Virus genome (UHGV): UHGV-0143428
DNA from: a virus
DNA length: 13,664 bases
Direction: 5' to 3' (one strand)
Shown piece after piece: positions 1 through 13,110 of this stretch (within the stretch, counting starts at the first letter, position 1; each line of letters begins with the position of its first letter). Both the position numbers and the translations under genes were made by a program. The notes under the pieces were generated by a model. It was given only the letters and a program-made list of their open reading frames with translations. It was not told the DNA's origin and did no database searches.

Positions 1-48
1 CGAGATAGGCTCCGGTCTCGTGGGCTCGGAGATGTGTATAAGAGACAG
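1..48. other. Illumina Nextera P7-side adapter (non-biological contig-end contamination)
   Basis: Bases 1-6 CGAGAT (end of P7), 7-14 AGGCTCCG (8-nt i7 index position; as recalled the reverse complement of Nextera index N720 CGGAGCCT), 15-29 GTCTCGTGGGCTCGG, 30-48 AGATGTGTATAAGAGACAG (Tn5 mosaic end). Genomic sequence begins at base 49. Confidence 0.9.
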
Positions 49-50
49 GG

Positions 51-80
51 CTAGGGAAGGCTAACCTTCCCTAGTTTTTT
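51..80. terminator. Perfect 10-bp inverted repeat (CTAGGGAAGG-ctaa-CCTTCCCTAG) plus T6, immediately downstream of the 355-aa gene stop; terminator-like hairpin
   Basis: Stem 51-60 / 65-74, loop 61-64, T-run 75-80 on the + strand. On the minus strand the U-run side would lie in the adapter-truncated region, so its function for the minus-strand operon cannot be confirmed. Confidence 0.4.
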
Positions 81-81
81 A

Positions 82-1149
82 TTAGATAAGATCTTCCTCA
101 TCATGATCAAAGCCATACTGTAGAGCTTCAGATAGCTCAATTTGCTTATTTAAGTGTAGATTCACTCGAACAGCAATCCATTTAGCTGGACTTCCCATAC
201 CTGCTATATCCCCTATAGCAGCATTTCTTATCATTGCAGCTCCCCAAGAGTCCTCCCTTTGATAATGTGGATACTCTGCCAAAATTGATTTCGCAGCTTC
301 AATGAACCCTTCTTTATTCATCCCAGGGCGGCGCTCGAAATACCATGAATCATTTAACGCTATATCAATTCTAGGAACATATCGCCCAATTATGTTGTCA
401 TACACTACTGAATGAATTGAACCATGATCGCCATAAATAGCGACATCACTTCCACCAATATTTTGATGCAATTCTCTCTCAATAACATCAATATATCCGG
501 ACTGTCCATTTTCACGGCAAAAATTTGTAACTGAACTAGGGAAGCTTGTTGCTAGCACACTAATTATGGCTTCAGGAATCTCAGTTCTAATCTGATTAAT
601 CGAATTTATTGCTGCAGCTGTTATAGCAGATACATTCCCTCTAATGTAGCCCAAATCTATGAAAACTATGGCATTTTCTGGAGAGTTCATCGATACTAGT
701 GACGTCAGGGTTTTATTAATGTCTGTATTTAGATTTCTAATTCTAAATGCAATTGAACCTTTAAGTTCCTCTAAAACCCTGGCTTGGATAGATATATCTC
801 TAAGTTTTGCTGAATCCGGCATCTGGACTACTGGAATAATATTATCATTTCTGGAACAAAACTCTATCCAGTTTTTAAAACCATTCTCAGGAGAGAGTAG
901 TTCGAAGCTTGACGCGCAATGATGAGAATTATCCTTTGTGACATCCAAAATAAATGGGAGATTACTCATCACTTCTAAACTTTTATCTAACGATACCTGT
1001 ATTTCTTCCGAGCGAGGCCATTTCCCCAAAGAAATTAAAGGTAATATTTTTTTCTTATTCTCATATGATAAATTATTCAGTCCGGTCATTTCTGCTGATC
1101 GTGTTCTTAGGGCTGGATAGTATGAGTAATTTTCAAAATATACTTTCAT
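82..1149 (-). CDS. Hypothetical 355-aa soluble protein, distal gene of the hotspot cassette; candidate P4 beta-type protein (unverified)
   Basis: Uninterrupted 355-codon ORF with a GGAGG RBS about 11 nt upstream of the ATG. The start lies 2 nt after the stop of the upstream 133-aa gene (TAA-AT-ATG), indicating translational coupling. About 37% GC versus about 55-60% in psu/alpha. No Walker A or other motif I can recognise by eye. It sits where P4 carries gop-beta-cII, between cos and int. Confidence 0.7.
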   Translation of the reverse strand: MKVYFENYSYYPALRTRSAEMTGLNNLSYENKKKILPLISLGKWPRSEEIQVSLDKSLEVMSNLPFILDVTKDNSHHCASSFELLSPENGFKNWIEFCSRNDNIIPVVQMPDSAKLRDISIQARVLEELKGSIAFRIRNLNTDINKTLTSLVSMNSPENAIVFIDLGYIRGNVSAITAAAINSINQIRTEIPEAIISVLATSFPSSVTNFCRENGQSGYIDVIERELHQNIGGSDVAIYGDHGSIHSVVYDNIIGRYVPRIDIALNDSWYFERRPGMNKEGFIEAAKSILAEYPHYQREDSWGAAMIRNAAIGDIAGMGSPAKWIAVRVNLHLNKQIELSEALQYGFDHDEEDLI

Positions 1150-1151
1150 AT

Positions 1152-1553
1152 TTAATTAGCCTCCGAATCGATATTTTCTGGTCGGCTTGCTGTTCTTGGC
1201 ATAGCGTTAATTTGGGGGTTCTGAGTAGCAAGATAAGCAGCTATACTTTCCATCTTCTCTTTCTGTTCTGAAGTTCTTGCAAGTTCTTTAATCAATTCTT
1301 TGTTTTCAGCCATCAAGTTTTGATTGGATTCATTATGACTCTTGATTACCTCCATATTACTTTTTATAACATTCGTGTGGTTGTTGCTAATTGCTTTAAT
1401 CGTTCTGTGTGTAAACCATCCAATAAGTAAAGCAGCTAACCATCCAGAACAAACGAGCAACCATTGTGAAATATCTTGGTTGCGGATGAAGCTAGTAGCA
1501 ATAGTGATTATGGTCCCAACAACGCCAATTAATCCATATACATGATTCAGCAT
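1152..1553 (-). CDS. 133-aa small membrane protein (two N-terminal TM helices plus charged coiled-coil tail); candidate toxin/effector of the hotspot cassette, possibly gop-type (unverified)
   Basis: Hydrophobic segments at about residues 6-23 (YGLIGVVGTIITIATSFI) and 31-47 (WLLVCSGWLAALLIGWF), followed by a K/E/N-rich helical tail. It is the first gene after cos, transcribed away from cos, and is AT-rich like its partner. Confidence 0.6.
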   Translation of the reverse strand: MLNHVYGLIGVVGTIITIATSFIRNQDISQWLLVCSGWLAALLIGWFTHRTIKAISNNHTNVIKSNMEVIKSHNESNQNLMAENKELIKELARTSEQKEKMESIAAYLATQNPQINAMPRTASRPENIDSEAN

Positions 1554-1780
1554 CCTTTAACTCTCTCATGCCACGAATTCTTAAGGATCTTGCGACACTG
1601 ACAAGAACCACCTTACATCAATCTATTTTTTGCATATTTTTCAGGATAGTGCCATCAAAAAAGACAGTTTTGGACCATAGGCCATAGATTTTCTTCATTA
1701 TGCTCCAATGTATTAACGAGGTATGTACTGAAGGCACTTTGACTACACAAATAATTAACTAACTTGTCGGTTTGCGCGCG

Positions 1781-1799
1781 GTGCTTTCCCCGCCTCGCC
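1781..1799. other. cos site: P2/P4-type 19-nt cohesive end sequence
   Basis: GTGCTTTCCCCGCCTCGCC at 1781-1799 is the reverse complement of GGCGAGGCGGGGAAAGCAC, the cohesive end of P2/186/P4 as I recall it. It is located just beyond the psu stop, as in P4. Confidence 0.8.
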
Positions 1800-1900
1800 C
1801 GCCCGCTTTGCGGGGCGGTTTTAATGCAGTTGCACTGACACGCTCAGACCGCGCCGGGAATGGCGCGGTTTGCAGAAAATGAGGCAGGAAAACGCATGCA

Positions 1901-1934
1901 AAGCCATGCACCTTATCGATGCATGGCTTTTTTC
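1901..1934. terminator. Intrinsic-terminator-like hairpin between psu stop and cos
   Basis: AAGCCATGCA (1901-1910), 9-nt loop, TGCATGGCTT (1920-1929), then a T-run on the + strand. It lies about 30 bp downstream of the psu stop codon (1965) on the opposite strand, so it is possibly bidirectional. Confidence 0.45.
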
Positions 1935-1964
1935 AGTAAAAACAGGCGGATTTTTCGGGGAGTT

Positions 1965-2537
1965 TTACACAGACTGACGTGATGCCAGTTCTGCACTTTT
2001 ACGCGAAAAAATCATGTTCTGCGCAGGGGTGAATTTTTCACGGCTGTCATCCACCGAAGCCGCGTCAGGCCTGAATCCGATGGTCGTTAAAATGTCGCTA
2101 TCCTGTGCGGAATAATTAATTTTTTCCCCCTTCGCAAGCCAGGACAGAAGGGCTTCACGCAGGGCATCTGTGGCACGCTGTATGGCACAGTTTCGGGCAA
2201 TGGCCGTCAGCTCACTGTAGCCCATCAGCTCCGGTGCCAGTGCGGCCGCCAGTGCTGTGCCGTGCTGCTGCATAAAATCATTCAGCCGCTCGCGGATGCT
2301 GATGTGCTGAACGGCTTCATGCGAACGAATATAACGACCGGCGGCCTGATTCACCTGCCATTTTCTGACTTCGATAATATTGCGTAATTCGTCCAGGCGA
2401 CTGACGTTTCTGCCTTCTCCTGACAGAAGCCGCAGATATTCCTGTTCGGCCGCTGCCAGCTCATTTTTGCGTTGCAGCCATGCTGCTTTGTTATTCTGAC
2501 AGGTGTCAAAGGCCTGCTGTAAGGCTGTGCTTTCCAT
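1965..2537 (-). CDS. psu: Psu, polarity suppression / capsid decoration protein (P4-type)
   Basis: 190-aa ORF starting MESTALQQAFDTCQNNK. Length and N-terminus match my recollection of P4 Psu. It is the last gene of the sid-delta-psu operon, adjacent to cos. Confidence 0.85.
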   Translation of the reverse strand: MESTALQQAFDTCQNNKAAWLQRKNELAAAEQEYLRLLSGEGRNVSRLDELRNIIEVRKWQVNQAAGRYIRSHEAVQHISIRERLNDFMQQHGTALAAALAPELMGYSELTAIARNCAIQRATDALREALLSWLAKGEKINYSAQDSDILTTIGFRPDAASVDDSREKFTPAQNMIFSRKSAELASRQSV

Positions 2538-2610
2538 CGTTATCTCTTTCTCATCATGCTGAAGAATAAAAATACGGTGTGCGGCGACGGCCGGTGTTAA
2601 CCGGCAGCCC

Positions 2611-3111
2611 TCATTCCAGACGCAGCGAATATGATTGTGTTTTTAACCGTACTGGCGGCAGTTCCTGTTTTTCATGCAGGCGTTCTGCCAGTTCGTCCGG
2701 CGTGACCGGGCGGACAATGAAGCGGTTGATGGTCTGAAGCGTTTTAAACACCAGACCACAGCCCGGATCCGTGCACACATAAAAACGCTCGGTGACTTCC
2801 TGAGACAGACGCCGCGATGTTCTTGACAGTGCAAGGCCTTTACATCTCCGACAACAATATCCGGTAACAAGCATTCTTTTCGGGCGTTTCATACCGCAGG
2901 AGGCTGACGTCAGTGAATCGCGGTATCTCTGTTTGCCTGAAATGTATTCCATTCCTGAATCTTTACTGTCAGAGAAAAAGCTTTCACTCGCTTCAAATGT
3001 CGCAGAGCAATAAATATTCCGGCACTGTGCAATCATTATCTTGGTGCCATCGTCCATGAAATGTGCGCGACGGGTGTGAGCAACATGTCCACACGACGGA
3101 CAGTAAATCAT
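2611..3111 (-). CDS. delta: Delta, late-gene transcriptional activator (tandem Ogr-type zinc-finger protein)
   Basis: 166 aa. Two Ogr-like Cys4 units (CPSCGH...CRNIYC near the N-terminus, and CCRRCKG...CTDPGC in the second half). Its start overlaps the sid stop (ATGA). Length matches P4 Delta as recalled. Confidence 0.85.
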   Translation of the reverse strand: MIYCPSCGHVAHTRRAHFMDDGTKIMIAQCRNIYCSATFEASESFFSDSKDSGMEYISGKQRYRDSLTSASCGMKRPKRMLVTGYCCRRCKGLALSRTSRRLSQEVTERFYVCTDPGCGLVFKTLQTINRFIVRPVTPDELAERLHEKQELPPVRLKTQSYSLRLE

Positions 3112-3842
3112 GACAGCAGCCCTCTGGCCTTAAGCTCTGCTCCCTGCTGGTCTATTTTGTCCTGCCACACCTTGCGCTGTGCCGGTGTGCCTGCCACCTC
3201 ATAATCCATGTGCGGGAGTGTTGCCGCTGACAGTCCGGTCAGCCGGAGAACCGGCTCGCCGGTGAGGCTGATTTGCATCTGTTTAATTTTCTGTTCCAGC
3301 GATGATTTCACCTGCTGCATGACAGCCTTTTCCGGTGCGACGTAGCCCTGATGGCCGGTGGTGTTGGCGAGCGGATTTTCCTGTACCAGAATGCTCAGAT
3401 GCATTGCCCGGACAAGCGCCTCACAGGTTTCATTCAGGGCGTGTTCCAGCTCATGCTCTGCATACAGACTCAGAAGGTGATGATGTGCCTTCCGGTAGGC
3501 GGTGGCCGTGCTGTCACACGCCCCTTTCAGGCGTTCACGTTCGAAATTCAGCACCACGGCCAGATTGTCATATTCCTGTACCAGCTCCCGGCGTGCCACG
3601 CGCTCAATGTGGCGCTGTTTCAGCTCGTCGCTCAGGACACCACCGGCTGCACGAAAGGCCGTGCGCCAGTCGTCAGCGTCGTTTCCGTCGGCCTGCGCCA
3701 GCGCATTTTTTTCCTGCTCTGCCCGTTCAATGGCCGTGACGGTCTCATCCATCAGGCGGGCGTTCTCAAGATGGGCGGCTCTGGCCTTTTCCAGTTGTGC
3801 CAGTGCGGGTTGCAGATATTCAGGGATAGTGTGGTCAGACAT
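3108..3842 (-). CDS. sid: Sid, capsid size-determination (external scaffold) protein
   Basis: The ORF is open from 3860, but the GAGGAG RBS sits 8 nt upstream of the internal ATG at 3842 (MSDHTIPEYL...), giving 244 aa, the P4 Sid length as recalled. It is a helical, Q/E/A-rich protein and the first gene of the late operon. Confidence 0.85.
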   Translation of the reverse strand: MSDHTIPEYLQPALAQLEKARAAHLENARLMDETVTAIERAEQEKNALAQADGNDADDWRTAFRAAGGVLSDELKQRHIERVARRELVQEYDNLAVVLNFERERLKGACDSTATAYRKAHHHLLSLYAEHELEHALNETCEALVRAMHLSILVQENPLANTTGHQGYVAPEKAVMQQVKSSLEQKIKQMQISLTGEPVLRLTGLSAATLPHMDYEVAGTPAQRKVWQDKIDQQGAELKARGLLS

Positions 3843-3914
3843 TTTCCGGCTCCTCGTCACTTCAGGTTAAGAAAATTGTGACGTACACCGGACAACAACA
3901 CGACGCATTGCAGA

Positions 3915-3932
3915 TGTGCCAGCCCTGACACA
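3915..3932 (-). promoter_or_regulatory. Candidate Delta/Ogr binding dyad (TGT-N12-ACA) of the sid late promoter
   Basis: TGTGCCAGCCCTGACACA. Its centre is about 80 bp upstream of the sid ATG, which would place a transcription start about 25 nt upstream of the ATG if the dyad is centred at -55, as in P2/P4 late promoters. The motif is short and could occur by chance. Confidence 0.3.
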
Positions 3933-4011
3933 GGAGACTCATCCTCAGACCGGCAAGCCAGGAAAAGGTCGCAGGAAAAACCGGCTTACTGTTTGTTTTT
4001 TTATATTTTAC

Positions 4012-4116
4012 TGTTCACCTCTGTTCACCTTAATAAAAAAGATAAGTAATACAGTAAGTTAAAGGGTGAACAATCGCAGTAATGACTGTTCACCGTCTGT
4101 TCACCACTGTTCACCC
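4012..4116. repeat. Iteron cluster (TGTTCACC octamers), ori-like alpha-protein binding region
   Basis: Direct copies of TGTTCACC at 4012, 4022, 4087, 4098 and 4109, and one inverted copy (GGTGAACA) at 4065. Flanked by AT-rich tracts. P4 alpha binds iterons of this type in ori and crr (recalled). Confidence 0.75.
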
Positions 4117-4219
4117 GTTGATGGGCTTTTTGTGCTGTTTACTACTGTTTGTTTTTATTAATTCGCCGGGAATGAATAAGAAGAAACGATTTGTATTTCA
4201 CTATAAAAATTACAAATTG

Positions 4220-4249
4220 CTTTAAGTGGCTTTAAATGACTTTAAGTGG
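4220..4249 (+). promoter_or_regulatory. Helically phased triple CTTTAA repeat / duplicated TTTAAGTGG upstream of vis (candidate operator/promoter element)
   Basis: CTTTAA at 4220, 4230 and 4240 (exact 10-bp phasing). TTTAAGTGG at 4221-4229 and 4241-4249. It is located about 150 bp upstream of the vis start in an AT-rich region. Confidence 0.35.
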
Positions 4250-4394
4250 AGATGAACAAAAAACACACAGCCATTGTAAGGCAGCCTGAACAAATCCCCC
4301 CTGTTGCGTCTGCTGAAAATATTCACAAAATAAAGCGCTACCCGAAGCCGGACGGACTTATCCGGTGCTGTATGGACATTAACGAGGTAGCCCG

Positions 4395-4661
4395 ATGCAA
4401 GCTGTTTTTTCTTCCCCGTCTCCCGCCCCAGTGACGCCACTGATGCCGCTGCCGGACATCACGCAGGAGCGTTTTTTACGTCTGCCGGAAGTGATGCACC
4501 TGTGCGGCCTGTCACGCTCGACCATCTACGAACTCATCCGTAAGGGGGAATTTCCGCCGCAGGTGAGTCTTGGCGGTAAAAATGTGGCCTGGCTGCACTC
4601 TGAAGTCACCGCATGGATGGCCGGGCGCATTGCCGGACGCAAACGGGGGTACGACGCATGA
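4395..4661 (+). CDS. vis: Vis/AlpA-family excisionase-type transcriptional regulator
   Basis: 88-aa ORF with the AlpA-family signature ([32 protein letters not shown]). GAGGT RBS 8 nt upstream of the ATG at 4395. An internal start at MPLPD cannot be excluded. Confidence 0.75.
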
Positions 4662-5059
4662 TGATGCCCGCTCTGCAAAAACTCCCTTTTTCTGGCTTGC
4701 CTTTTTCCGGCATTTGCGGATATAGTTTTTCCGCTGCCGCAAAATCGGCAGCCGGGCGTGAGAACCCGAGCAATTCACAGGCGACATATGACGCGCCACG
4801 CGTCTTTTTTTGTGTCGCAATCAATGCCACAGAGCGCCAGATTATGGTGTGGTGTGTGGTCAGTCGTGCAGATGGCATTCCGTGCATCCTGCCCGCGTCC
4901 GCTCATTATGCCGCAGAGTCAATGGTAGCTCAGGCGGGGCAGCCTCCGGGCTGGCCGGTATCCGTTAGAGCCGGTATTCTCACCCCCGTCTGGGCTATCG
5001 CCATCGAGCGTGAGAACTCCGGCGATAGCGTTATTTGCTATTCACAGGAGGCTGCCATC

Positions 5060-5257
5060 ATGGCTACAACCCTTACCCCCTCACACCCTGAATTTGTCTT
5101 TGTGTTTGCGGCTGTCCGTCGCGCAGACCGTCATCCCCGTATCTGTATGCTTCGCACCGTCGCCGGTGATGAACGCAGTGCCCGCCGTTCCCTTGTCCGT
5201 GACTATGTGCTCTCCCTTGCTGCCCGTCTGCCGGTGGTGGAGGTGTCCCGTGCGTAA
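5060..5257 (+). CDS. Small hypothetical protein (65 aa) of the leftward operon, translationally coupled to the epsilon-like gene
   Basis: An internal ATG at 5060 within the long 4613-5257 reading frame is preceded by AGGAGG 7 nt upstream. The stop overlaps the GTG start of the next gene. The upstream part of the long ORF is more likely RNA/leader. Confidence 0.4.
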
Positions 5258-5537
5258 TAAAAAAGCCCCTCAGACCGTCTCAGCGCGTCATGACGCCCGT
5301 GAACACCTCAGCATTGAGGCTTACCATAAGCTCAACCGCGCCAGCGCCGTATCCCGGTTTGTTGGGGGTGATTTGATTCACCGTGAACTCTCCGGCCTGC
5401 ATCAGCTCTACATTCCGCATATTTTCAGCTACCTGAATGAAGATATTGATTTTGTGCTGAATGAGCTGAAAGCCAAAGGCCTGTGCCGCGATTTTCTCGC
5501 CCAGCAGAAAGACCGGGGAGACAGGACGCATGTTTGA
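5250..5537 (+). CDS. Epsilon-like protein (P2-derepression factor position), about 95 aa, GTG start
   Basis: GTG at 5250 preceded by GGAGGTG 5-6 nt upstream, in frame through the stop at 5535-5537, which overlaps the ATG of the orf151-like gene. Size and position relative to orf151/alpha match P4 epsilon as recalled; the sequence identity is not verified. Confidence 0.5.
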
Positions 5538-5985
5538 TTTTCCCCAGCCCGGTGAGATTTACCGTTCTGCCGGTTTTCCCGATGTGGCCGTGGTCGGCAT
5601 TCTGGAAGACGGTATTCCGTGGGAAATGCCGTACCGCTGCCCGGACATTGTCTGGAACCCGTACCGCCGTAAATTCAGTATCCTTGTGCGTATCCTCGCT
5701 GACGGACGCACCACAGACATCCCGCTGGGGCGTTTTCTGCGGGAATTTACCTGTGACCGTCCTGACCTGTTTAAACGCAGCCCCGTAAACCGGCATTCGG
5801 TACTGAAAGAAATGGCCGGAGACCCGGAATTACAGAAATGGCGGGAAAAATATCTGGATATTTACCCGCAGGACACTGTTCCGGTCAGCCGGGCAGCACC
5901 GGTGGCGCGGGAATGGCGGGAAATTCCCCGCACGGAGCCTGACCCGGAAACCACCCCGGATAACAGTTACCGCAATTATCTGTAA
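5530..5985 (+). CDS. orf151-like protein (151 aa) of the alpha operon
   Basis: Exactly 151 codons. Its ATG overlaps the upstream gene's stop. It lies upstream of alpha, as does P4 orf151. Confidence 0.65.
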   Translation: MFDFPQPGEIYRSAGFPDVAVVGILEDGIPWEMPYRCPDIVWNPYRRKFSILVRILADGRTTDIPLGRFLREFTCDRPDLFKRSPVNRHSVLKEMAGDPELQKWREKYLDIYPQDTVPVSRAAPVAREWREIPRTEPDPETTPDNSYRNYL

Positions 5986-6120
5986 TTAAAAAACGACCCC
6001 CGAAAAATTAAATGTGCGTATTCGCGCAGGGATACGCACGTCTTCAGGAGACGCAGATATGCCTTATCAGTTAATGCAACCGGCACGGAATGCAGTCATC
6101 TGTCACAGGGAGAAAAGCAA

Positions 6121-6441
6121 ATGAAAACACCCTTACCGCCCGTCTTACGCGCTGCCCTTTACCGTCGCGCTGTCGCCTGTGCCTGGCTGACCGTGTGCGA
6201 ACGTCAGCACCGCTACCCGCATCTCACCCTTGAATCACTGGAGGCGGCCATCGCCGCTGAGCTGGAAGGCTTTTATCTGCGCCAGCACGGTGAGGAAAAA
6301 GGGCGCCAGATAGCCTGTGCCCTGCTGGAAGATTTAATGGAATCCGGCCCCCTGAAGGCCGCGCCGTCGCTGTCCTTTCTCGGGCTGGTTGTGATGGATG
6401 AACTCTGTGCCCGTCACATAAAAGCGCCGGTACTGCACTGA
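6121..6441 (+). CDS. Hypothetical 106-aa protein immediately upstream of alpha
   Basis: ORF with a GGGAGA RBS, ending 14 bp before the alpha start. Preceded by a 21-codon upstream ORF whose TGA overlaps its ATG. Confidence 0.55.
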
Positions 6442-6455
6442 AGGAGAACAACACC

Positions 6456-8789
6456 ATGAAAATGAACGTAACCGCCACCGTCAGCCATGCGCTCGGCCAC
6501 TGGCCGCGTATTCTCCCGGCGCTGGGGATTCAGGTGCTGAAGAACCGTCATCAGCCCTGTCCGGTCTGTGGCGGGAGTGACCGTTTCCGTTTTGATGACA
6601 GGGAGGGGCGCGGCACCTGGTACTGCAATCAGTGTGGTGCCGGTGACGGCCTGAAACTGGTTGAAAAGGTGTTTGGTGTTTCCCCGTCCGACGCGGCCGC
6701 AAAGGTGGCTGCCGTGACCGGCAGCCTGCCACCGGCTGACCCGGCAGTGACGACCGCCGCCGGTGCTGAAACAGACGCTGCCCGGAAGAACGCCGCCGCA
6801 CTGGCACAAACCCTGATGGCGAAAACCCGTCCCGGAACCGGTAACGCCTACCTGACCCGCAAGGGCTTTCCCGGCCGGGAATGCCGGATGCTGACCGGCA
6901 CACACAGAGCCGGTGGCGTGAGCTGGCGCGCCGGTGACCTTGTGGTGCCACTGTATGACGACAGCGGCGAACTGGTTAACCTTCAGTTAATCAGTGCTGA
7001 CGGCCGTAAGCGCACCCTGAAAGGCGGGCAGGTCAGGGGCACCTGTCACATCCTTGAAGGACAGAATCAGGCCGGAAAACGTCTGTGGATAGCGGAGGGA
7101 TACGCGACCGCACTTACCGTGCATCACCTGACCGGTGAAACGGTGATGGTGGCGCTTTCTTCCGTGAACCTCCTTTCTCTGGCCAGCCTTGCCCGGCAGA
7201 AGCATCCGGCCTGTCAGATTGTCCTTGCCGCAGACCGTGACCTCAGCGGTGACGGCCAGAAAAAAGCCGCCGCAGCCGCAGATGCGTGTGAGGGCGTTGT
7301 TGCCCTGCCGCCGGTCTTCGGTGACTGGAATGATGCCTTCACGCAGTACGGCAGGGAGGCCACCCGTAAGGCCATTTATGATGCCATCCGGCCACCGGCT
7401 GAAAGCCCGTTCGACACCATGAGCGAAGCGGAGTTTTCCGCCATGAGTACCAGCGAAAAGGCCATGCGTATCTATGAGCATTACGGCGAGGCGCTCGCGG
7501 TCGATGCCAACGGCCAGCTTCTGTCCCGCTATGAAAATGGTGTCTGGAAGGTGCTGCCACCACAGGACTTTGCCCGGGATGTGGCCGGGCTGTTTCAGCG
7601 TCTGCGCGCGCCGTTCTCCTCCGGGAAGGTGGCCTCCGTGGTGGACACCCTGAAGCTGATTATTCCGCAGCAGGAAGCCCCCTCCCGCCGCCTGATTGGC
7701 TTTCGTAACGGCGTGCTCGACACGCAGAACGGCACGTTCCACCCGCACAGTCCGTCACACTGGATGCGCACCCTGTGCGATGTGGATTTCACCCCGCCGG
7801 TGGACGGTGAAACGCTGGAGACCCACGCCCCCGCGTTCTGGCGCTGGCTTGACCGTGCCGCCGGTGGCCGTGCGGAAAAACGCGACGTGATTCTGGCCGC
7901 ACTGTTTATGGTGCTGGCAAACCGCTACGACTGGCAGCTCTTTCTGGAGGTGACCGGTCCCGGCGGCAGCGGCAAAAGTATCATGGCCGAAATAGCCACC
8001 CTGCTGGCCGGGGAGGATAACGCCACGTCGGCCACCATTGAGACGCTGGAATCCCCGCGTGAACGTGCCGCGTTAACTGGCTTCTCACTGATACGCCTGC
8101 CGGACCAGGAAAAATGGAGCGGCGACGGTGCCGGACTCAAGGCCATCACCGGCGGCGATGCGGTGTCCGTTGACCCGAAATACCGGGATGCGTACTCCAC
8201 GCATATCCCGGCGGTGATTCTGGCCGTGAACAATAACCCGATGCGCTTCACCGACCGCAGCGGCGGCGTGTCACGCCGGCGGGTGATTATTCACTTCCCG
8301 GAACAGATAGCCCCGCAGGAGCGCGACCCGCAGCTTAAGGACAAAATCACCCGCGAGCTGGCGGTCATCGTGCGTCACCTGATGCAGAAGTTCAGCGACC
8401 CGATGCTCGCCCGGTCACTGCTTCAGTCCCAGCAGAACTCAGACGAGGCGCTGAACATCAAACGGGATGCCGACCCGACGTTTGATTTTATCGGCTATCT
8501 GGAAACCCTGCCGCAGACCAGCGGCATGTATATGGGGAACGCCAGTATCATCCCGCGCAATTACCGTAAATACCTCTATCACGCCTATCTGGCCTACATG
8601 GAGGCAAACGGCTACCGGAATGTACTCAGTCTGAAAATGTTCGGGCTGGGGCTGCCGGTGATGCTGAAGGAATACGGACTGAATTACGAGAAGCGCCATA
8701 CCAAACAGGGGATACAGACCAACCTGACGCTGAAAGAGGAAAGCTACGGCGACTGGCTGCCAAAATGTGACGACCCTACAACAGCCTGA
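6456..8789 (+). CDS. alpha: Alpha protein: bifunctional primase-helicase with C-terminal origin-binding domain
   Basis: 777 aa, the P4 alpha length as recalled. N-terminal zinc motif CPVCGG...YCNQCG, TOPRIM-like EGYATALTV and LAADRD, Walker A GPGGSGKS at 7951-7974, and Walker-B-like acidic residues. AAGGAG RBS 8 nt upstream of the ATG. Confidence 0.9.
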   Translation: MKMNVTATVSHALGHWPRILPALGIQVLKNRHQPCPVCGGSDRFRFDDREGRGTWYCNQCGAGDGLKLVEKVFGVSPSDAAAKVAAVTGSLPPADPAVTTAAGAETDAARKNAAALAQTLMAKTRPGTGNAYLTRKGFPGRECRMLTGTHRAGGVSWRAGDLVVPLYDDSGELVNLQLISADGRKRTLKGGQVRGTCHILEGQNQAGKRLWIAEGYATALTVHHLTGETVMVALSSVNLLSLASLARQKHPACQIVLAADRDLSGDGQKKAAAAADACEGVVALPPVFGDWNDAFTQYGREATRKAIYDAIRPPAESPFDTMSEAEFSAMSTSEKAMRIYEHYGEALAVDANGQLLSRYENGVWKVLPPQDFARDVAGLFQRLRAPFSSGKVASVVDTLKLIIPQQEAPSRRLIGFRNGVLDTQNGTFHPHSPSHWMRTLCDVDFTPPVDGETLETHAPAFWRWLDRAAGGRAEKRDVILAALFMVLANRYDWQLFLEVTGPGGSGKSIMAEIATLLAGEDNATSATIETLESPRERAALTGFSLIRLPDQEKWSGDGAGLKAITGGDAVSVDPKYRDAYSTHIPAVILAVNNNPMRFTDRSGGVSRRRVIIHFPEQIAPQERDPQLKDKITRELAVIVRHLMQKFSDPMLARSLLQSQQNSDEALNIKRDADPTFDFIGYLETLPQTSGMYMGNASIIPRNYRKYLYHAYLAYMEANGYRNVLSLKMFGLGLPVMLKEYGLNYEKRHTKQGIQTNLTLKEESYGDWLPKCDDPTTA

Positions 8790-8837
8790 CCCACCTGACC
8801 GGCATCTGCCGGTCTTTTTTTATCCCGACATCCCCCG

Positions 8838-9115
8838 AAGGTGAACAATCCACTGTTCACCCTTCACCGTATATTCACCCGTTATCACACTGAAATTAAA
8901 AGAGAAAAACGAAAGGTGAACAGTGTGAACAATCAAATCAAAAAAAACTTTTTTCTTCCTGAGTGATTTCAGTGCGGAGGATTAATCACCGGTATGAGTC
9001 ACACCGGCAGAATGCCGGAGGTGAAGAATCGAATGTTCACCCTTCACCCATTATTCACCACCTATCACTCTGAAATAAAAGGAGAAAACAGAAAGGTGAA
9101 CAGTGTGAACAGTTC
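8838..9115. repeat. crr-like cis replication region: two ~97-bp direct repeats (about 85% identical, period 180 bp) each carrying several iterons and followed by an A-run/T-run block
   Basis: Repeat A at 8838-8934 and repeat B at 9018-9114. Each contains GGTGAACA, TGTTCACC, CTTCACC, ATTCACC and the terminal GAAAGGTGAACAGTGTGAACA. A7/T6 tracts follow at 8938-8954 and 9120-9136. Confidence 0.75.
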
Positions 9116-9326
9116 TTTCGAAAAAAAATTTTTTATGTGGATAAAAGATGCACTGGTTTGGATCCGAGCTACGGATCCAAACTTACTGATTAAAAATGAT
9201 TTAACTTTCCGATTTATTGATGGGCTGAAAATAGATTGGTCAGAAAAACAGTGGGGGCACAAAAGGGGGCATATTTCATTGTTGTGTTTTATTATTTGTT
9301 TTTTATCATTAACTTATTTTGATGTT

Positions 9327-9346
9327 TGAGTCCGGCCTTCGCACCA
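9327..9346 (+). other. att core: 20-bp copy of a tRNA 3' end (T-arm/acceptor/CCA), tRNA-Leu (leuX)-like
   Basis: TGAGTCCGGCCTTCGCACCA matches, with one missing G, the 3' end of E. coli tRNA-Leu(CAA) as I recall it (..TTCGAGTCCGGCCTTCGGCACCA). Upstream sequence is AT-rich and not tRNA-like, so this is a core repeat (attR-type) rather than a full tRNA gene. Confidence 0.6.
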
Positions 9347-9531: not shown

Positions 9532-10797
9532 ATGGCATTAACAGATATCAAAGTCAGAGCAGCCAAGCCAACGGATAAGCAATATTAGCTGACTGATGGT
9601 GGCGGTATGCATCTGCTTGTCCATCCAAATGGTTCTAAGTACTGGCGTTTGCAGTACCGTTATGAGGGAAAGCAAAAAATGCTGGCACTTGGGGTTTATC
9701 CTGAAATCACACTAGCGGATGCCAGAGTACGTCGTGACGAGACGCGTAAGCTGCTTGCGAATGGCGTCGATCCGGGAGACAAAAAGAAAAATGATAAGGT
9801 TGAACAGAGTAAAGCACGAACCTTTAAAGAAGTCGCGATTGAGTGGCATGGCACCAATAAAAAGTGGTCTGAAGATCACGCCCATCGTGTGCTAAAAAGT
9901 CTTGAAGATAATCTTTTTGCAGCGCTTGGTGAACGTAATATCGCTGAGTTAAAAACTCGAGATTTATTAGCACCTATTAAGGCCGTAGAAATGTCTGGAC
10001 GTCTTGAAGTGGCCGCTCGTCTTCAGCAGCGCACTACAGCCATCATGCGCTATGCAGTGCAAAGTGGGTTAATTGATTATAACCCGGCACAAGAGATGGC
10101 TGGGGCGGTTGCTTCCTGTAATCGACAACATCGTCCCGCGCTTGAATTAAAGCGCATCCCTGAGTTGCTTACAAAAATAGATAGCTATACTGGTAGGCCG
10201 CTAACCCGATGGGCGATAGAACTCACTTTGCTGATCTTTATTCGGTCCAGTGAGCTGCGTTTTGCTCGTTGGTCAGAGATCGATTTCGAAGCGTCTATAT
10301 GGACTATCCCACCGGAGCGGGAGCCTATTCCTGGAGTGAAACATTCCCATAGAGGCTCAAAAATGCGTACAACGCATCTAGTGCCTCTTTCAACGCAAGC
10401 TCTTGCAATTTTAAAGCAGATAAAACAGTTTTATGGGGCCCATGACTTGATATTTATTGGTGATCACGATTCGCACAAACCCATGAGTGAGAATACGGTA
10501 AATAGTGCGTTACGGGTCATGGGGTATGATACAAAAGTAGAGGTTTGTGGTCATGGCTTTCGAACAATGGCCTGTAGTTCATTGGTCGAATCAGGTCTGT
10601 GGTCTCGTGATGCTGTTGAACGTCAGATGAGCCACATGGCGCGAAATTCAGTGAGGGCCGCGTATATCCATAAAGCAGAGCATCTGGAAGAACGGCGATT
10701 GATGCTACAGTGGTGGGCCGATTTTCTGGATGTAAACAGAGAAAGGTTTATCAGTCCATTTGAATATGCAAAGATTAATAATCCATTAAAACAGTAA
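9532..10797 (+). pseudogene. int: P4-family tyrosine integrase with an in-frame amber codon at codon 19 (N-terminally disrupted; 396-aa ORF remains from an internal Met)
   Basis: ATG at 9532 with RBS encodes MALTDIKVRAAKPTDKQY, then TAG at 9586-9588, then in the same frame LTDGGGMHLLVHPNGSKYW... This is the conserved P4-type integrase N-terminus interrupted by a stop. The downstream ORF 9607-10797 carries the integrase catalytic region (R..H..R..Y type C-terminus). Confidence 0.8.
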
Positions 10798-11197: not shown

Positions 11198-12420
11198 TTA
11201 GTTATCTTCGTCTGTCAGCGGATTGAATGGCGGTATATTTTCAGTACAAATACCGGTCATCCACTGAAAAATACCTGCGAAATGACGGGCACTGATTTTT
11301 CTACTGACGGGCTGATGAGACGTTATGTCACTGGCGGTAATAATCAGTGGCACACTGTAGCCTCCCTGCACATGACCATAATGATGAACAGGATTGGCAC
11401 TGTCGCTGACCGACAGCCCAAGGCCAGAAAAGTAAAGCATGGCGAAATGACGTGAGTACCGGCGAAGGATACCATCAAGCTGGCCAAGAAAGTTATCCAG
11501 TTTACTGATGCTGGCGAGGTAACAGGCAATTTTTCGGGGATACTGCTCCAGGTAATTATTCGGCTAGGAGTTAAGGCTGTCACACGGATTTGGATGAGAA
11601 CCCATCATGTGCAGGAAAATTATCTTCGGAGAGGATGTATCCGCCAGCGCACGTTCTGTTTCCTGTAACAACAGTTTGTCATCTGTTTTACGGGAAGCGA
11701 AGCTGCCTTTCTTGAGGAAAGTGGCATGCTCCGCATCAGAAGCAATAACAGAGATGCGTGTGTCATGCTCCCCCAGTTTTCCTTGATTGGATATCCACCA
11801 TGTGCTGTATCCTGCTTTTGCTGCCAGCGCCACCACATTGTTGCCGGAATCAGGGTTCTGCTCATAGTCATAAATCAGTGTCCGGCTCAGGGAAGACACT
11901 GTACTGGAGGCTGTCGAGGTATAATCGTCAATAAATAAACCGGGTGCCGTATTCAGCCACGGTGTGGTTGGTACGGGATAGTCATACACTGACATATAAT
12001 CCCTGCGCACACTCTCACCAGTGACAATAACAATCGTATCATATAACGGTGCTCCCGGCTGGATTTTCCAGTTGTCAGCCCCGTGCTACTCAGTTGTTCA
12101 TAACGCTGCATTTCACGTAATGTGTCAGTTGTCCCCACAACTGTTCCTTTAACCATCCGCAATGGCCAACGGTTTACAGAGCATAATACGAATAGCCGTA
12201 GAGCCAGCCAGTTACGGTGGTCGCGATGGTGTGTCCGCCAGAAAATCACCACGAATACCAGAATCGCGGCACTGACCAGAAAATGATAAACAGGAAACAC
12301 GGGGCGGTTCACTTTGCTTTCTCCTGTAGTGTTTTCTGTAGGTTCTGAACCGGTTCTAGCGGGGTTGTGAGGCTGATGGCAATCGCCGGGCTCTTCCTGC
12401 ATGTTACACTGGTACTGCAA
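11198..12420 (-). pseudogene. Frameshifted sulfatase-family (phosphoethanolamine-transferase-like) membrane protein pseudogene
   Basis: Adjacent minus-strand ORFs in different frames: 11953-12420 contains a hydrophobic TM segment; 11564-12010 contains sulfatase-type motifs (RRDYMSVYDYPV, FLHMMGSHP); 11344-11583 and 11198-11440 continue in other frames. Boundaries are approximate. Confidence 0.5.
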
Positions 12421-12780
12421 GAGGGGGCCTTCGCTCCTCTGACATTACTCAGTATTTTCACTACTACACCCCATCTGCCATCCATAACAACCGATTCACC
12501 CCCTCGCGAGGCGTTGTTGCCCGTCACCCGGACAGACACCGTTATGGACTTCTCTTGTTGCACGATCGATCAATTGTTATGCATGCTGACACCACAACCC
12601 CGGTGGGTATGACCGATGCCTTTCTCACTCTCTTCCCGGTCATCGTCGGCCTTCCCCGTTATTGTGGCGTGTCAGCACCCTCGACGGCATTTCGATGGCT
12701 GCTCAGTGTTCACTCACGTTACGGCCCGCATAACCCGTTGACTTCCTGAAGAAGTCGTTTCAGGGAGAGATTCAGCCCTT

Positions 12781-13110
12781 TTGTTACCTCCTGGACCGCT
12801 TCTTGTCCTTCCAGTCGGAGCGAGAGTTAGCCGGGGCGGACTTTCACCGACGGAAAGATCGTGCATTTCAAGGCACACACAACAATATCTGCGAGCGTGC
12901 TATCCGTCCGGTCGTTATGGGACGAAAGGCCTGGTTGTTCGCTGGTTCACTGGTGGCCGGGAACCGCGCGGCACAGATAATGAGCCTTCTGGGAACCGCA
13001 GTCTGGAGCCACATGCTTGGCTGACGGACGTCCTGACGCGTCTGCCGGAGTGGCCGGAGGAGAGGTTGGCTGAGTTACTGCCTCTTGAGGGCTTTACCTT
13101 CTTCGGGTAA
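12781..13110 (+). mobile_element. IS66-family transposase 3' remnant (C-terminal about 100 codons, frameshifted, lacking the DDE domain)
   Basis: Frame 1 (12803-13024) reads NNICERAIRPVVMGRKAWLFAGSLVAGNRAAQIMSLLGTA; frame 2 (to 13110) reads PHAWLTDVLTRLPEWPEERLAELLPLEGF. Together these are the conserved IS66 TnpC C-terminal block, split by a frameshift near 12990-13020. No upstream catalytic region is present. Confidence 0.6.

Follow-up and report, generated by a model that had tools for sequence, protein, structure and literature searches.

The Ogr/Delta-activated late promoters of phage P2 and its satellite P4 have the consensus TGT-N12-ACA (PMC3931495). The P2 Cox protein recognizes boxes of the type TTAAA(G/C)NC(A/C), starting 10-11 bp apart, and binds upstream of the P4 promoter PLL with the first box facing away from it (PMC3936717), while the cox annotation in NC_001895 lists activation of the P4 late promoter; the Cox protein of phage Wphi neither binds the P2 boxes nor activates P4 (PMC5009727). 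The Apl operators of phage 186 are seven TGGCAA-like units, 10-11 bp apart, located between pR and pL. In the SaPI (Stl antirepressors) and PLE systems, an early protein of the helper wakes the satellite by binding the repressor protein of the latter. The minimal ori1 of P4 is reportedly a 123-bp segment with six type I iterons and a 35-bp AT-rich region.

The window considered here is the whole 13,664-nt stretch of UHGV virus genome UHGV-0143428. Its positions 3600-4700 were 99.7% identical to P4 (X51522), with a single base mismatch within 3800-4450 (4281, G here and A in X51522), which falls inside the spacer of a dyad at 4275-4292. On this identity, the window is satellite phage P4, integrated as a prophage, and 3843-4394 is its sid-vis intergenic control region, as the initial annotation had placed it. 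The same intergenic region was found in ~20% of complete E. coli genomes. The X51522 record contains a rep_origin flanked by sid and ORF88; following the alignment suggested at the outset, its 'ori type 1 repeat' units, six in number, coincided exactly with the iterons, and its three 'ori type 2 repeat' units with the CTTTAA motifs. GenBank assigns the triple repeat to the origin and not to Cox. Four known devices are very probably packed into these 552 bp: Psid, ori1, an array of P2 Cox boxes and PLL, and the function of the region as a hub with two helper-activated late promoters, an origin and a Cox site is already known. The identity to P4, the coordinates, motif excess, conservation, the Cox-box consensus match and the absence of co-variation with Vis were computed directly. 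The features are the following (strand given where one applies):

3842-3840, minus strand: ATG start of sid with a Shine-Dalgarno sequence at 3851-3853 (the sid CDS start in X51522, P4 position 9583, corresponds to window 3842)
3851-3853, minus strand: potential SD annotated in X02534
3868-3880, minus strand: Psid core, -10 hexamer CACAAT at 3880-3875 (sid strand), predicted start ~3868, placed from the dyad
3877-3894: second TGT-N12-ACA dyad, TGTGACGTACACCGGACA, centre at ~-18 of Psid
3891-3903: GACAACAACACGA, a nearly invariant sequence (conservation 0.7-1.0 in 32 distant loci) within -23 to -35 of Psid
3915-3932: predicted Ogr/Delta activator site of Psid, TGT-N12-ACA dyad TGTGCCAGCCCTGACACA, centre at ~-55
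3950-3981: conserved block CCGGC..GCCAGGAAAAGGTCGCAGGAAAAAC (conservation ~0.9 in 32 distant loci)
3989-4011: T-rich/AT-rich stretch with conserved CTGTTTGTTTTTTTA, adjoining the first iteron on the left
3999-4009: 'put. ori consensus sequence' annotated in X02534
4012-4115, plus strand: P4 ori (ori1) with six type I iterons TGTTCACC, annotated in X51522
4012-4019, 4022-4029, 4087-4094, 4098-4105 and 4108-4115, plus strand: direct copies of TGTTCACC, from motif search
4065-4072, minus strand: inverted copy of TGTTCACC, from motif search
4198-4256, core 4217-4245, minus strand: predicted P2 Cox operator (the GenBank 'ori type 2 repeats'), from consensus and spacing
4245-4237, 4235-4227 and 4225-4217, minus strand: core Cox boxes TTAAAGTCA, TTAAAGCCA and TTAAAGCAA, matched to TTAAASNCM
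4275-4292: TGT-N12-ACA dyad of PLL, centre at ~-55, from motif search
4316-4339, plus strand: PLL -10 block AAAATATTCACAAAATAAAG, near-invariant in all loci, predicted start ~4339
4347-4366, plus strand: conserved vis leader hairpin GCCGGA...UCCGGU, stem kept and loop variable
4395-4661, plus strand: vis (ORF88 in X51522), AlpA-family helix-turn-helix regulator, first gene of the PLL transcript
6456-8789, plus strand: alpha, primase-helicase with a C-terminal origin-binding domain (X51522)
8840-9102: crr, second cis-acting replication site with five further perfect TGTTCACC iterons

Both transcription starts, the assignment of proteins to sites and the activation mechanism derive from inference or from the literature. 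The Psid start was set by taking the 3915-3932 dyad to be centred at -55 and the PLL start as the dyad centre plus 55; given these starts, both promoters resembled the known P2/P4 late promoters in having a perfect dyad ~55 bp upstream and no -35 element, with delta present in cis (2611-3111). A scan of 3750-4500 on both strands for sigma-70 consensus promoters was negative, as expected of activator-dependent promoters. No Rfam family matched inside 3843-4394, and the sole terminator candidate was the inverted iteron pair 4065-4094. At the place equivalent to 3915-3932 a perfect dyad was present in nearly all of ~40 loci (family consensus TTGTGGCA..TGGCACAA), and the half-sites were kept, with a variable spacer, in over 30 relatives belonging to other genera. 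The initial annotation had proposed this dyad for Delta/Ogr activation of the sid promoter, and its placement and conservation were as expected for such a site. Across 32 distant loci, the -10 motif ATTxTG (CAxAAT on the sid strand) was conserved to 90% or more. P4 differs from the general scheme in the second dyad of Psid, which is perfect solely in the E. coli P4 clade and reads TCT...ACA in distant relatives; In the P4 late promoters, Delta reportedly has a second site, at -18. In the whole window TGT-N12-ACA occurred five times against 3.24 expected, a count equalled by 46 of 200 shuffles, and three of the five matches were located within the 552-bp region, i.e., 4% of the window (binomial P ~6e-4); two of these perfect dyads, 3877-3894 and 4275-4292, had been overlooked initially. 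Psid would be a leftward late promoter with a weak -10 and without a -35, driving sid-delta-psu and switched on at 3915-3932 by zinc-finger activators, either P4 Delta or the Ogr of the helper. The conserved block at 3950-3981, for which neither annotation nor an Rfam match or terminator was found, includes two copies of CAGGAAAA, 13 bp apart. This motif, considered as a candidate Vis box, occurred seven times (0.65 expected), but with its copies scattered through coding regions.

The cluster of iterons corresponds to the origin of replication annotated in P4: it showed zero differences from the alpha-driven ori1/crr replicon of P4, the iterons being identical at the annotated positions, and both alpha and crr are present in the window. 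The five direct and one inverted iterons initially noted at 4012-4116 were all real and perfect, except that the last copy ends at 4115; they are spaced by 10, 43, 22, 11 and 10 bp, with a 35-bp spacer (4030-4064) of 83% A+T. The window contains 11 copies of TGTTCACC against 0.51 expected, a number reached in none of 200 shuffles, and the layout of two direct, one inverted and three direct iterons was kept together with its spacing in ~35 loci from many genera. Residues 671-770 of alpha matched PDB 1KA8 (E = 1e-63), and the repeats under 8840-9102 are annotated in X05623 as direct repeats of the 'cis replication region (crr)'. Alpha would bind the type I iterons via its C-terminal winged-helix domain, and ori1 would cooperate with crr, whose iterons lie at a distance of 4.7 kb.

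On the other side of the origin, the PLL dyad, unseen in the initial annotation, bears out its proposal of divergent late promoters flanking the origin. Besides the E. coli P4 clade, one further element (L007) has this dyad in perfect form, while the distant relatives have N11 or N13 instead of N12 spacing at an unchanged distance from the -10 block. The predicted start at ~4339 precedes the 5' end of an isrK match (4733) by 394 nt, which fits the distance of ~400 nt that we take to separate PLL from PLE. Transcription from PLL would run rightward into vis and the replication operon. The predicted fold of the vis leader hairpin was no more stable than that of shuffled sequences (z = +1.0). Vis itself matched Pfam Phage_AlpA (E = 7e-21) and PDB 8c3t, an AlpA family protein. 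Altogether, 32 loci from other genera, at ~60% identity, shared the Psid half-sites, CAxAAT, all six iterons and the distances between them, the PLL -10 block and the leader.

Between the iterons and the PLL dyad, the three CTTTAA motifs at 10-bp phasing were confirmed at 4220, 4230 and 4240, with the duplicated TTTAAGTGG at 4221-4229 and 4241-4249. Such a phased triple occurred once in the window and in none of 200 shuffles, even with two mismatches permitted. On the minus strand, opposite to vis, the same letters form three direct repeats spaced by exactly 10 bp, of which those at 4237-4245 and 4227-4235 matched the consensus TTAAA(G/C)NC(A/C) in 8 of 8 positions and that at 4217-4225 in 7 of 8. 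Weaker in-phase units at ~4198-4206 and ~4248-4256 scored at most 6/8, and a unit at 4207 only 3/8; three strong boxes are visible in P4 versus at least six per target and a footprint of ~70 bp in the literature. Perfect Cox boxes occurred four times in the window (1.7 expected), two of them isolated and outside the array; because such lone boxes arise by chance, the motif alone does not carry the argument, which depends on the phasing and on the location of the array 30-58 bp upstream of the PLL dyad. Consensus, direct-repeat arrangement and 10-bp phasing are common to P4 and the Cox operator of P2 (Pe-Pc switch, attP): the P2 boxes CACTAAAAGG CATTATAAGA CATTAAACGC, located between the annotated -10 and -35 signals of Pc, closely resemble CCACTTAAAGTCA TTTAAAGCCA CTTAAAGCAA on the P4 minus strand. 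The two differ in position and effect: the P2 boxes overlap and repress Pc, while those of P4 point away from PLL, at ~95-120 bp upstream of its start, and are reported to activate it (PMC3936717).

The triple repeat is, therefore, best read as a set of helically phased sites for a small winged-helix regulator, the predicted one being the helper-encoded P2 Cox. When a P2 helper enters lytic growth, Cox would oligomerise on the boxes, bending the DNA, and would activate the adjoining PLL, whereupon the P4 prophage wakes. The logic of the helper signal would be the same as in SaPI and PLE derepression, with the difference that in P4 the helper protein would bind the satellite DNA directly.

The initial annotation had considered a small regulator such as Vis or IHF for the triple repeat; on this view, either of them would tune the divergent late promoters. 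Vis reportedly represses PLL and stimulates Psid and must, consequently, bind somewhere near; it is also a small AlpA-family helix-turn-helix protein encoded directly downstream of the array. Excisionase-type regulators, moreover, typically use phased direct repeats (PMC7498355). A small regulator on phased repeats was a sound expectation, but the protein was not, the array matching instead the consensus of the helper Cox. All 88 residues of Vis were identical in the window, in an element with the same CTTTAA array (L004) and in one with a wholly different array (L006), and in an element with a third array type (L005) only one C-terminal residue was changed. The helix-turn-helix core ERF[LI]... 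was nearly invariant (the exception being L007) in 32 aligned loci with radically different arrays. A protein so constant should have conserved sites, unlike these arrays, which do not track Vis across the relatives; a Vis operator in the triple repeat is not supported. As for IHF, its consensus WATCAANNNNTTR was absent from 3843-4394, even with one mismatch allowed, and this candidate was rejected. Overall, a Vis or IHF site is very improbable here.

Similarly improbable is a second class of origin iterons, required for replication and bound by alpha or by a host factor. The X51522 record does place the three 'ori type 2 repeat' units within rep_origin, and only ~105 bp separate them from the last of the type I iterons; however, they were not conserved, being replaced by unrelated sequence in relatives that kept alpha and all six type I iterons at their usual spacing, and in an element ~99% identical over 3.9 kb just the type 2 block was replaced. 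Furthermore, an interval of 123 bp, the reported size of minimal ori1, cannot extend beyond 4134 if it is to include 4012-4115, which leaves 4220-4249 outside, and at crr the type I iterons are not accompanied by a CTTTAA array. That all these motifs are functionless chance features of AT-rich intergenic DNA is scarcely credible and is refuted by shuffling and conservation: although the TGT-N12-ACA count in the window and single Cox-box matches were at chance level, neither the iteron count nor the phased triple was reproduced in 200 shuffles each, motif positions were conserved across genera, and the best local self-similarity was found at lag 10 at the position equivalent to the array in 29 of 35 loci.

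The predicted P2 Cox operator of P4 acquires a wider context from the variation of this array among P4-like elements. Two elements 96-100% identical over 3.9 kb dropped to 58-82% only at 4150-4249, and the array type did not co-vary with Vis. The TTAAAG (P2 Cox) type was found in P4 itself, TGGCAA(AC) units as in the Apl operators of 186 and ENT90 in most elements from other Enterobacterales, and mixed TGGCAA/TGACAA/TGATAA arrays in some, while the remainder had other motifs; in phage BIS20, TGATAA/TGACAA units precede the apl gene. The architecture is like that of the 186 Apl operators, and in most of the non-E. coli elements the phased TGGCAA(AC) units take the place of the Cox boxes and mostly share their orientation, in contrast to P4, which has no phased TGGCAA chain (longest chain in the array segment of the window, 0). 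Of 37 loci, 22 had chains of at least three phased Apl-type sites and 3 had P2-type chains, compared to 0 of 480 background tiles. The array difference between the P4 clade and the other elements is confounded with phylogeny. The P4 anti-P2-repressor epsilon was undetectable in all Apl-type loci. The second array type from E. coli (L005) reads CCTTCAGAAC CCTTTGAGAC CCTTCCAGTC; its best match to the Wphi Cox 12-mer CCTAGAARGGAC was 9 of 12 positions, a score equalled by 15% of background tiles, and this assignment was dropped. Mimicry of sigma-54 (-24/-12) promoters by the phased TGGCA units of Apl-type arrays was likewise set aside as irrelevant to P4 itself.

These comparisons, together with the failure of Wphi Cox to bind the P2 boxes or to activate P4, suggest that the ~100-bp 'type 2 repeat' block may be one allele of a swappable helper-sensing cassette spread through the whole P4 satellite family, a reading whose chances we judge to be evenly balanced. 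All elements would then carry 3-6 direct repeats in helical phase, placed at a constant distance ahead of PLL, and these repeats would match the operator of the Cox/Apl-type excisionase-regulator from one P2-like helper lineage. In a crude co-occurrence check with a chimeric BLAST query, which covered one of four combinations of array type and helper immunity type, no enrichment of satellites with P2 boxes was seen: of the 60 P2-immune lysogens among the matches listed, 5 at the most had a second matching place, equal to the base rate of 8.1%, and partial hits blur the union counts. The cassette reading may be new: no report of it was found in the searchable literature, older subscription papers lying outside of it.

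The sid-vis region as described in the initial annotation is textbook P4 biology and serves as a calibration case, in which a reading from the letters alone correctly recovered the origin and the late promoter. If the cassette reading is true, the region would illustrate in compact form how a parasite copies the operator sites of its host virus, and the cassette, not the conserved genes, would set which helper awakens a given satellite. It would then be a sequence-readable predictor of which P2-like phage can induce which of the P4-like satellites, themselves very common.

All three features that the initial annotation had described between sid and vis (3843-4394) were confirmed in place: a late-promoter dyad, a cluster of iterons and a phased triple repeat; everything in these 552 bp is already known for bacteriophage P4. 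The stretch 3600-4700 is the minus strand of P4 (X51522/NC_001609) at 99.7% identity, with coordinates converted as window = 4395 + (9030 - P4). The P4 homology spans 48-9346, including beta, cos, psu, delta, sid, vis and alpha up to the attP core, and the E. coli chromosome begins to the right of ~9346, where the homology stops at this core; the window thus comprises the right-hand portion of a P4 prophage and its junction. A second P4-type tyrosine integrase (396 aa, 9607-10797) lies beyond the P4 homology, and the flank carries a sulfatase-domain fragment (11564-12010, minus strand) and, in its chromosomal part beyond the prophage, an Rfam match (69 bits) to group II intron domains D1-D4 (12714-12853, minus strand); no tRNA gene was detected in the window. 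Within 3800-4450 a single difference from X51522 was found at 4281 (G in the window, A in X51522), in the dyad spacer of the rightward late promoter PLL. Because natural E. coli relatives also carry G, the A of the reference P4 may have arisen as a change in the laboratory strain or through an error in sequencing.

Features in the window
2611-3111: P4 delta, a gene of the Ogr/Delta family
3616-4339: rep_origin (X51522 annotation)
3842, minus strand: start codon of sid, flanking the repeats (X51522)
Six 'ori type 1 repeat' entries (X51522 annotation), exactly at the six iterons
Three 'ori type 2 repeat' entries (X51522 annotation), exactly at the three CTTTAA units
4395-4661: ORF88, present name vis, flanking the repeats on the other side (X51522)
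6456-8789: alpha protein, residues 671-770 matching 1KA8, the solved P4 origin-binding domain

The iteron cluster consists, as claimed, of five direct copies and one inverted copy of TGTTCACC within 4012-4115. The whole window holds 11 copies versus 0.51 expected, a count reached by no shuffle, and the remaining five are at 8840-9102, where crr, the cis replication region, is annotated. Since the type 1 repeats of X51522 coincide with all six iterons, and given crr and the alpha domain, the proposed iteron origin is the known P4 ori; the older record X02534 annotates the same repeats plus the Shine-Dalgarno of sid. In one P4-like locus (L006, NZ_AP042673.1) a 10-bp deletion at the equivalent of 4096-4105 takes out a type I iteron, leaving five of six. 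Should losing a single iteron be enough to inactivate oriI, the L006 element may be replication-defective.

The initial annotation had also proposed divergent late promoters, and here the sid side was read correctly: the dyad TGTGCCAGCCCTGACACA is present at 3915-3932 with half-sites conserved across relatives. The PLL side was incomplete, the dyad at 4275-4292 having been missed together with another one at 3877-3894. TGT-N12-ACA is not over-represented window-wide (5 versus 3.2 expected), and three of the five copies fall in the studied region, which makes up 4% of the window. The same dyad is present in the P2 late promoters, which are Ogr-dependent (PMC3931495). With the centre of the 3915-3932 dyad set at -55, the start of the leftward late promoter, Psid, would be at ~3868, and its -10 hexamer would be the sid-strand CACAAT of 3880-3875. 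The centre of the 3877-3894 dyad would then be at about -18, which agrees with the second Delta site at -18 reportedly described by Julien and Calendar in 1995. The same placement of the 4275-4292 dyad puts the PLL start at ~4339, and from there it is 394 nt downstream to where the isrK/C4-target RNAs, markers of the PLE transcript, have their 5' end; this agrees with the position of PLL ~400 nt upstream of PLE. A search of the region for a sigma-70 consensus promoter gave none, as expected for activator-dependent promoters. Downstream of PLE, the P4 immunity region was visible in Rfam matches to c4-a1b1 (4720-4772), isrK (4733-4810) and C4 antisense RNA (4918-5005).

The region was found in 1069 of 5426 complete E. 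coli genomes, and a Vis-based scan gave 42 loci from many genera of Enterobacterales. A phylogenetic footprint built on 32 loci, each ~60% identical to the window, revealed high conservation of the Psid half-sites (family consensus TTGTGGCA..TGGCACAA) and the accompanying CAxAAT and GACAACAACACGA block, of the T-rich stretch and all six iterons in the layout 2 + 1 inverted + 3, and of the PLL -10 block and vis leader, small hairpin included; the sequence from the last iteron to PLL was not conserved. The leader hairpin (4347-4366, GCCGGA..UCCGGU) keeps its stem with a variable loop across genera and is not unusually stable. The block CCGGC..GCCAGGAAAAGGTCGCAGGAAAAAC at 3950-3981, with the Psid dyad on one side and the origin on the other, was ~90% conserved in these loci despite their low overall identity; it had no annotation, RNA-family match or obvious hairpin, and might be where the invariant Vis binds, or else the left margin of ori. 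The motif CAGGAAAA occurs seven times window-wide versus 0.65 expected (0/200 shuffles), with two copies in this block and the others scattered over sid, alpha and the flank.

The CTTTAA units were confirmed at 4220, 4230 and 4240, a phased triple obtained in none of 200 shuffles with two mismatches permitted. Their minus-strand forms, TTAAAGTCA, TTAAAGCCA and TTAAAGCAA, were compared with the cox-box consensus TTAAA(G/C)NC(A/C): two match perfectly and one at 7/8. P2 Cox binds upstream of PLL to boxes whose starts are spaced by 10-11 bp, the first box pointing away from the promoter, which stays accessible, and PLL activation by Cox derepresses the P4 prophage (PMC3936717). In the P2 genome record, Cox is described as activating the P4 late promoter, and P2 itself has very similar phased units, CACTAAAAGG CATTATAAGA CATTAAACGC, between the annotated -10 and -35 signals of Pc. 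Wphi Cox neither binds these boxes nor activates P4 (PMC5009727). The triple repeat is the predicted P2 Cox operator, with only three strong boxes visible in the P4 array versus at least six in the literature. A functional role of the array in the origin, under which X51522 lists it, is unlikely: relatives keeping iterons and alpha do not retain it and, with the minimal ori1 being 123 bp, an interval of this length holding all six iterons falls short of 4220. The Vis protein, which had been named as a possible binder, is the same in elements with different arrays, its helix-turn-helix core being nearly invariant over all array classes (one exception, L007). IHF, the other binder named, has no consensus site in the region. 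The suggestion of Vis or IHF for the phased repeat was therefore not supported.

The putative Cox operator lies in a part of the region which varies among relatives. Between the last iteron and PLL, local self-similarity peaked at lag 10 in 29 of 35 loci. The distance from this peak down to the -10 block was always ~90-125 nt, whereas the motif repeated there varied by locus. In 22 of 37 loci, three or more TGGCAA-like sites (5/6 or better) follow one another in phase. In L011-L048 (other Enterobacterales) these chains comprise three to five units and lie where P4 has its putative Cox boxes, ~145-195 nt upstream of vis; most share the minus-strand orientation of the P4 boxes, and those of L020 and L046 are reversed. 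The three P4-clade loci carry P2-type chains. As background, 480 tiles of 200 nt taken from these loci were examined, and no motif formed a chain of three in any of them. Phage 186 has TGGCAA as the unit of its seven annotated Apl sites (TGGCTA ACGCAA TGGCAA TGGCAA AGTCAA TTGCAA TGGCTA), and the extended TGGCAAAC is common to the satellites. Apl homologues were found in Escherichia, Klebsiella, Erwinia, Yersinia and Salmonella phages, among them Erwinia phage ENT90 (Apl 82% identical, TGGCAA x3) and Salmonella phage BIS20 (70% identical, TGATAA/TGACAA units upstream of apl); the mixed TTGCCA and TTGTCA/TTATCA units of L025, L030 and L035 are similar to those of BIS20.

P4 epsilon acts as an anti-repressor against the C protein of P2. 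Its homologues, and those of orf151, were undetectable downstream of vis in all loci with Apl-type units among L011-L048, epsilon being confined to the P4 clade and L015; the Apl-type loci retain Vis (~72% identical) and an Icd-like protein (~57%).

Within E. coli, the selC-integrated L059 (NZ_CP024131.1) has the same proteins epsilon, orf151 and Icd-like. Compared with the window in 50-nt bins over 2600-6500, it shows 96-100% identity in every bin but 4150-4199 (82%) and 4200-4249 (58%). In the very close E. coli relatives L059, L005 and L006, only a ~100-bp block corresponding to 4150-4255 is replaced by different 10-bp-phased repeats between flanks of 96-100% identity. Of the 5426 complete genomes, 439 have the P2-box allele and 277 the alternative allele of L059; the resemblance of this second E. 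coli allele to the Wphi motif was not significant, and a crude co-occurrence test of array type versus helper was null. Taken together, these comparisons suggest that the ~100-bp block upstream of PLL may be an exchangeable helper-sensing module.
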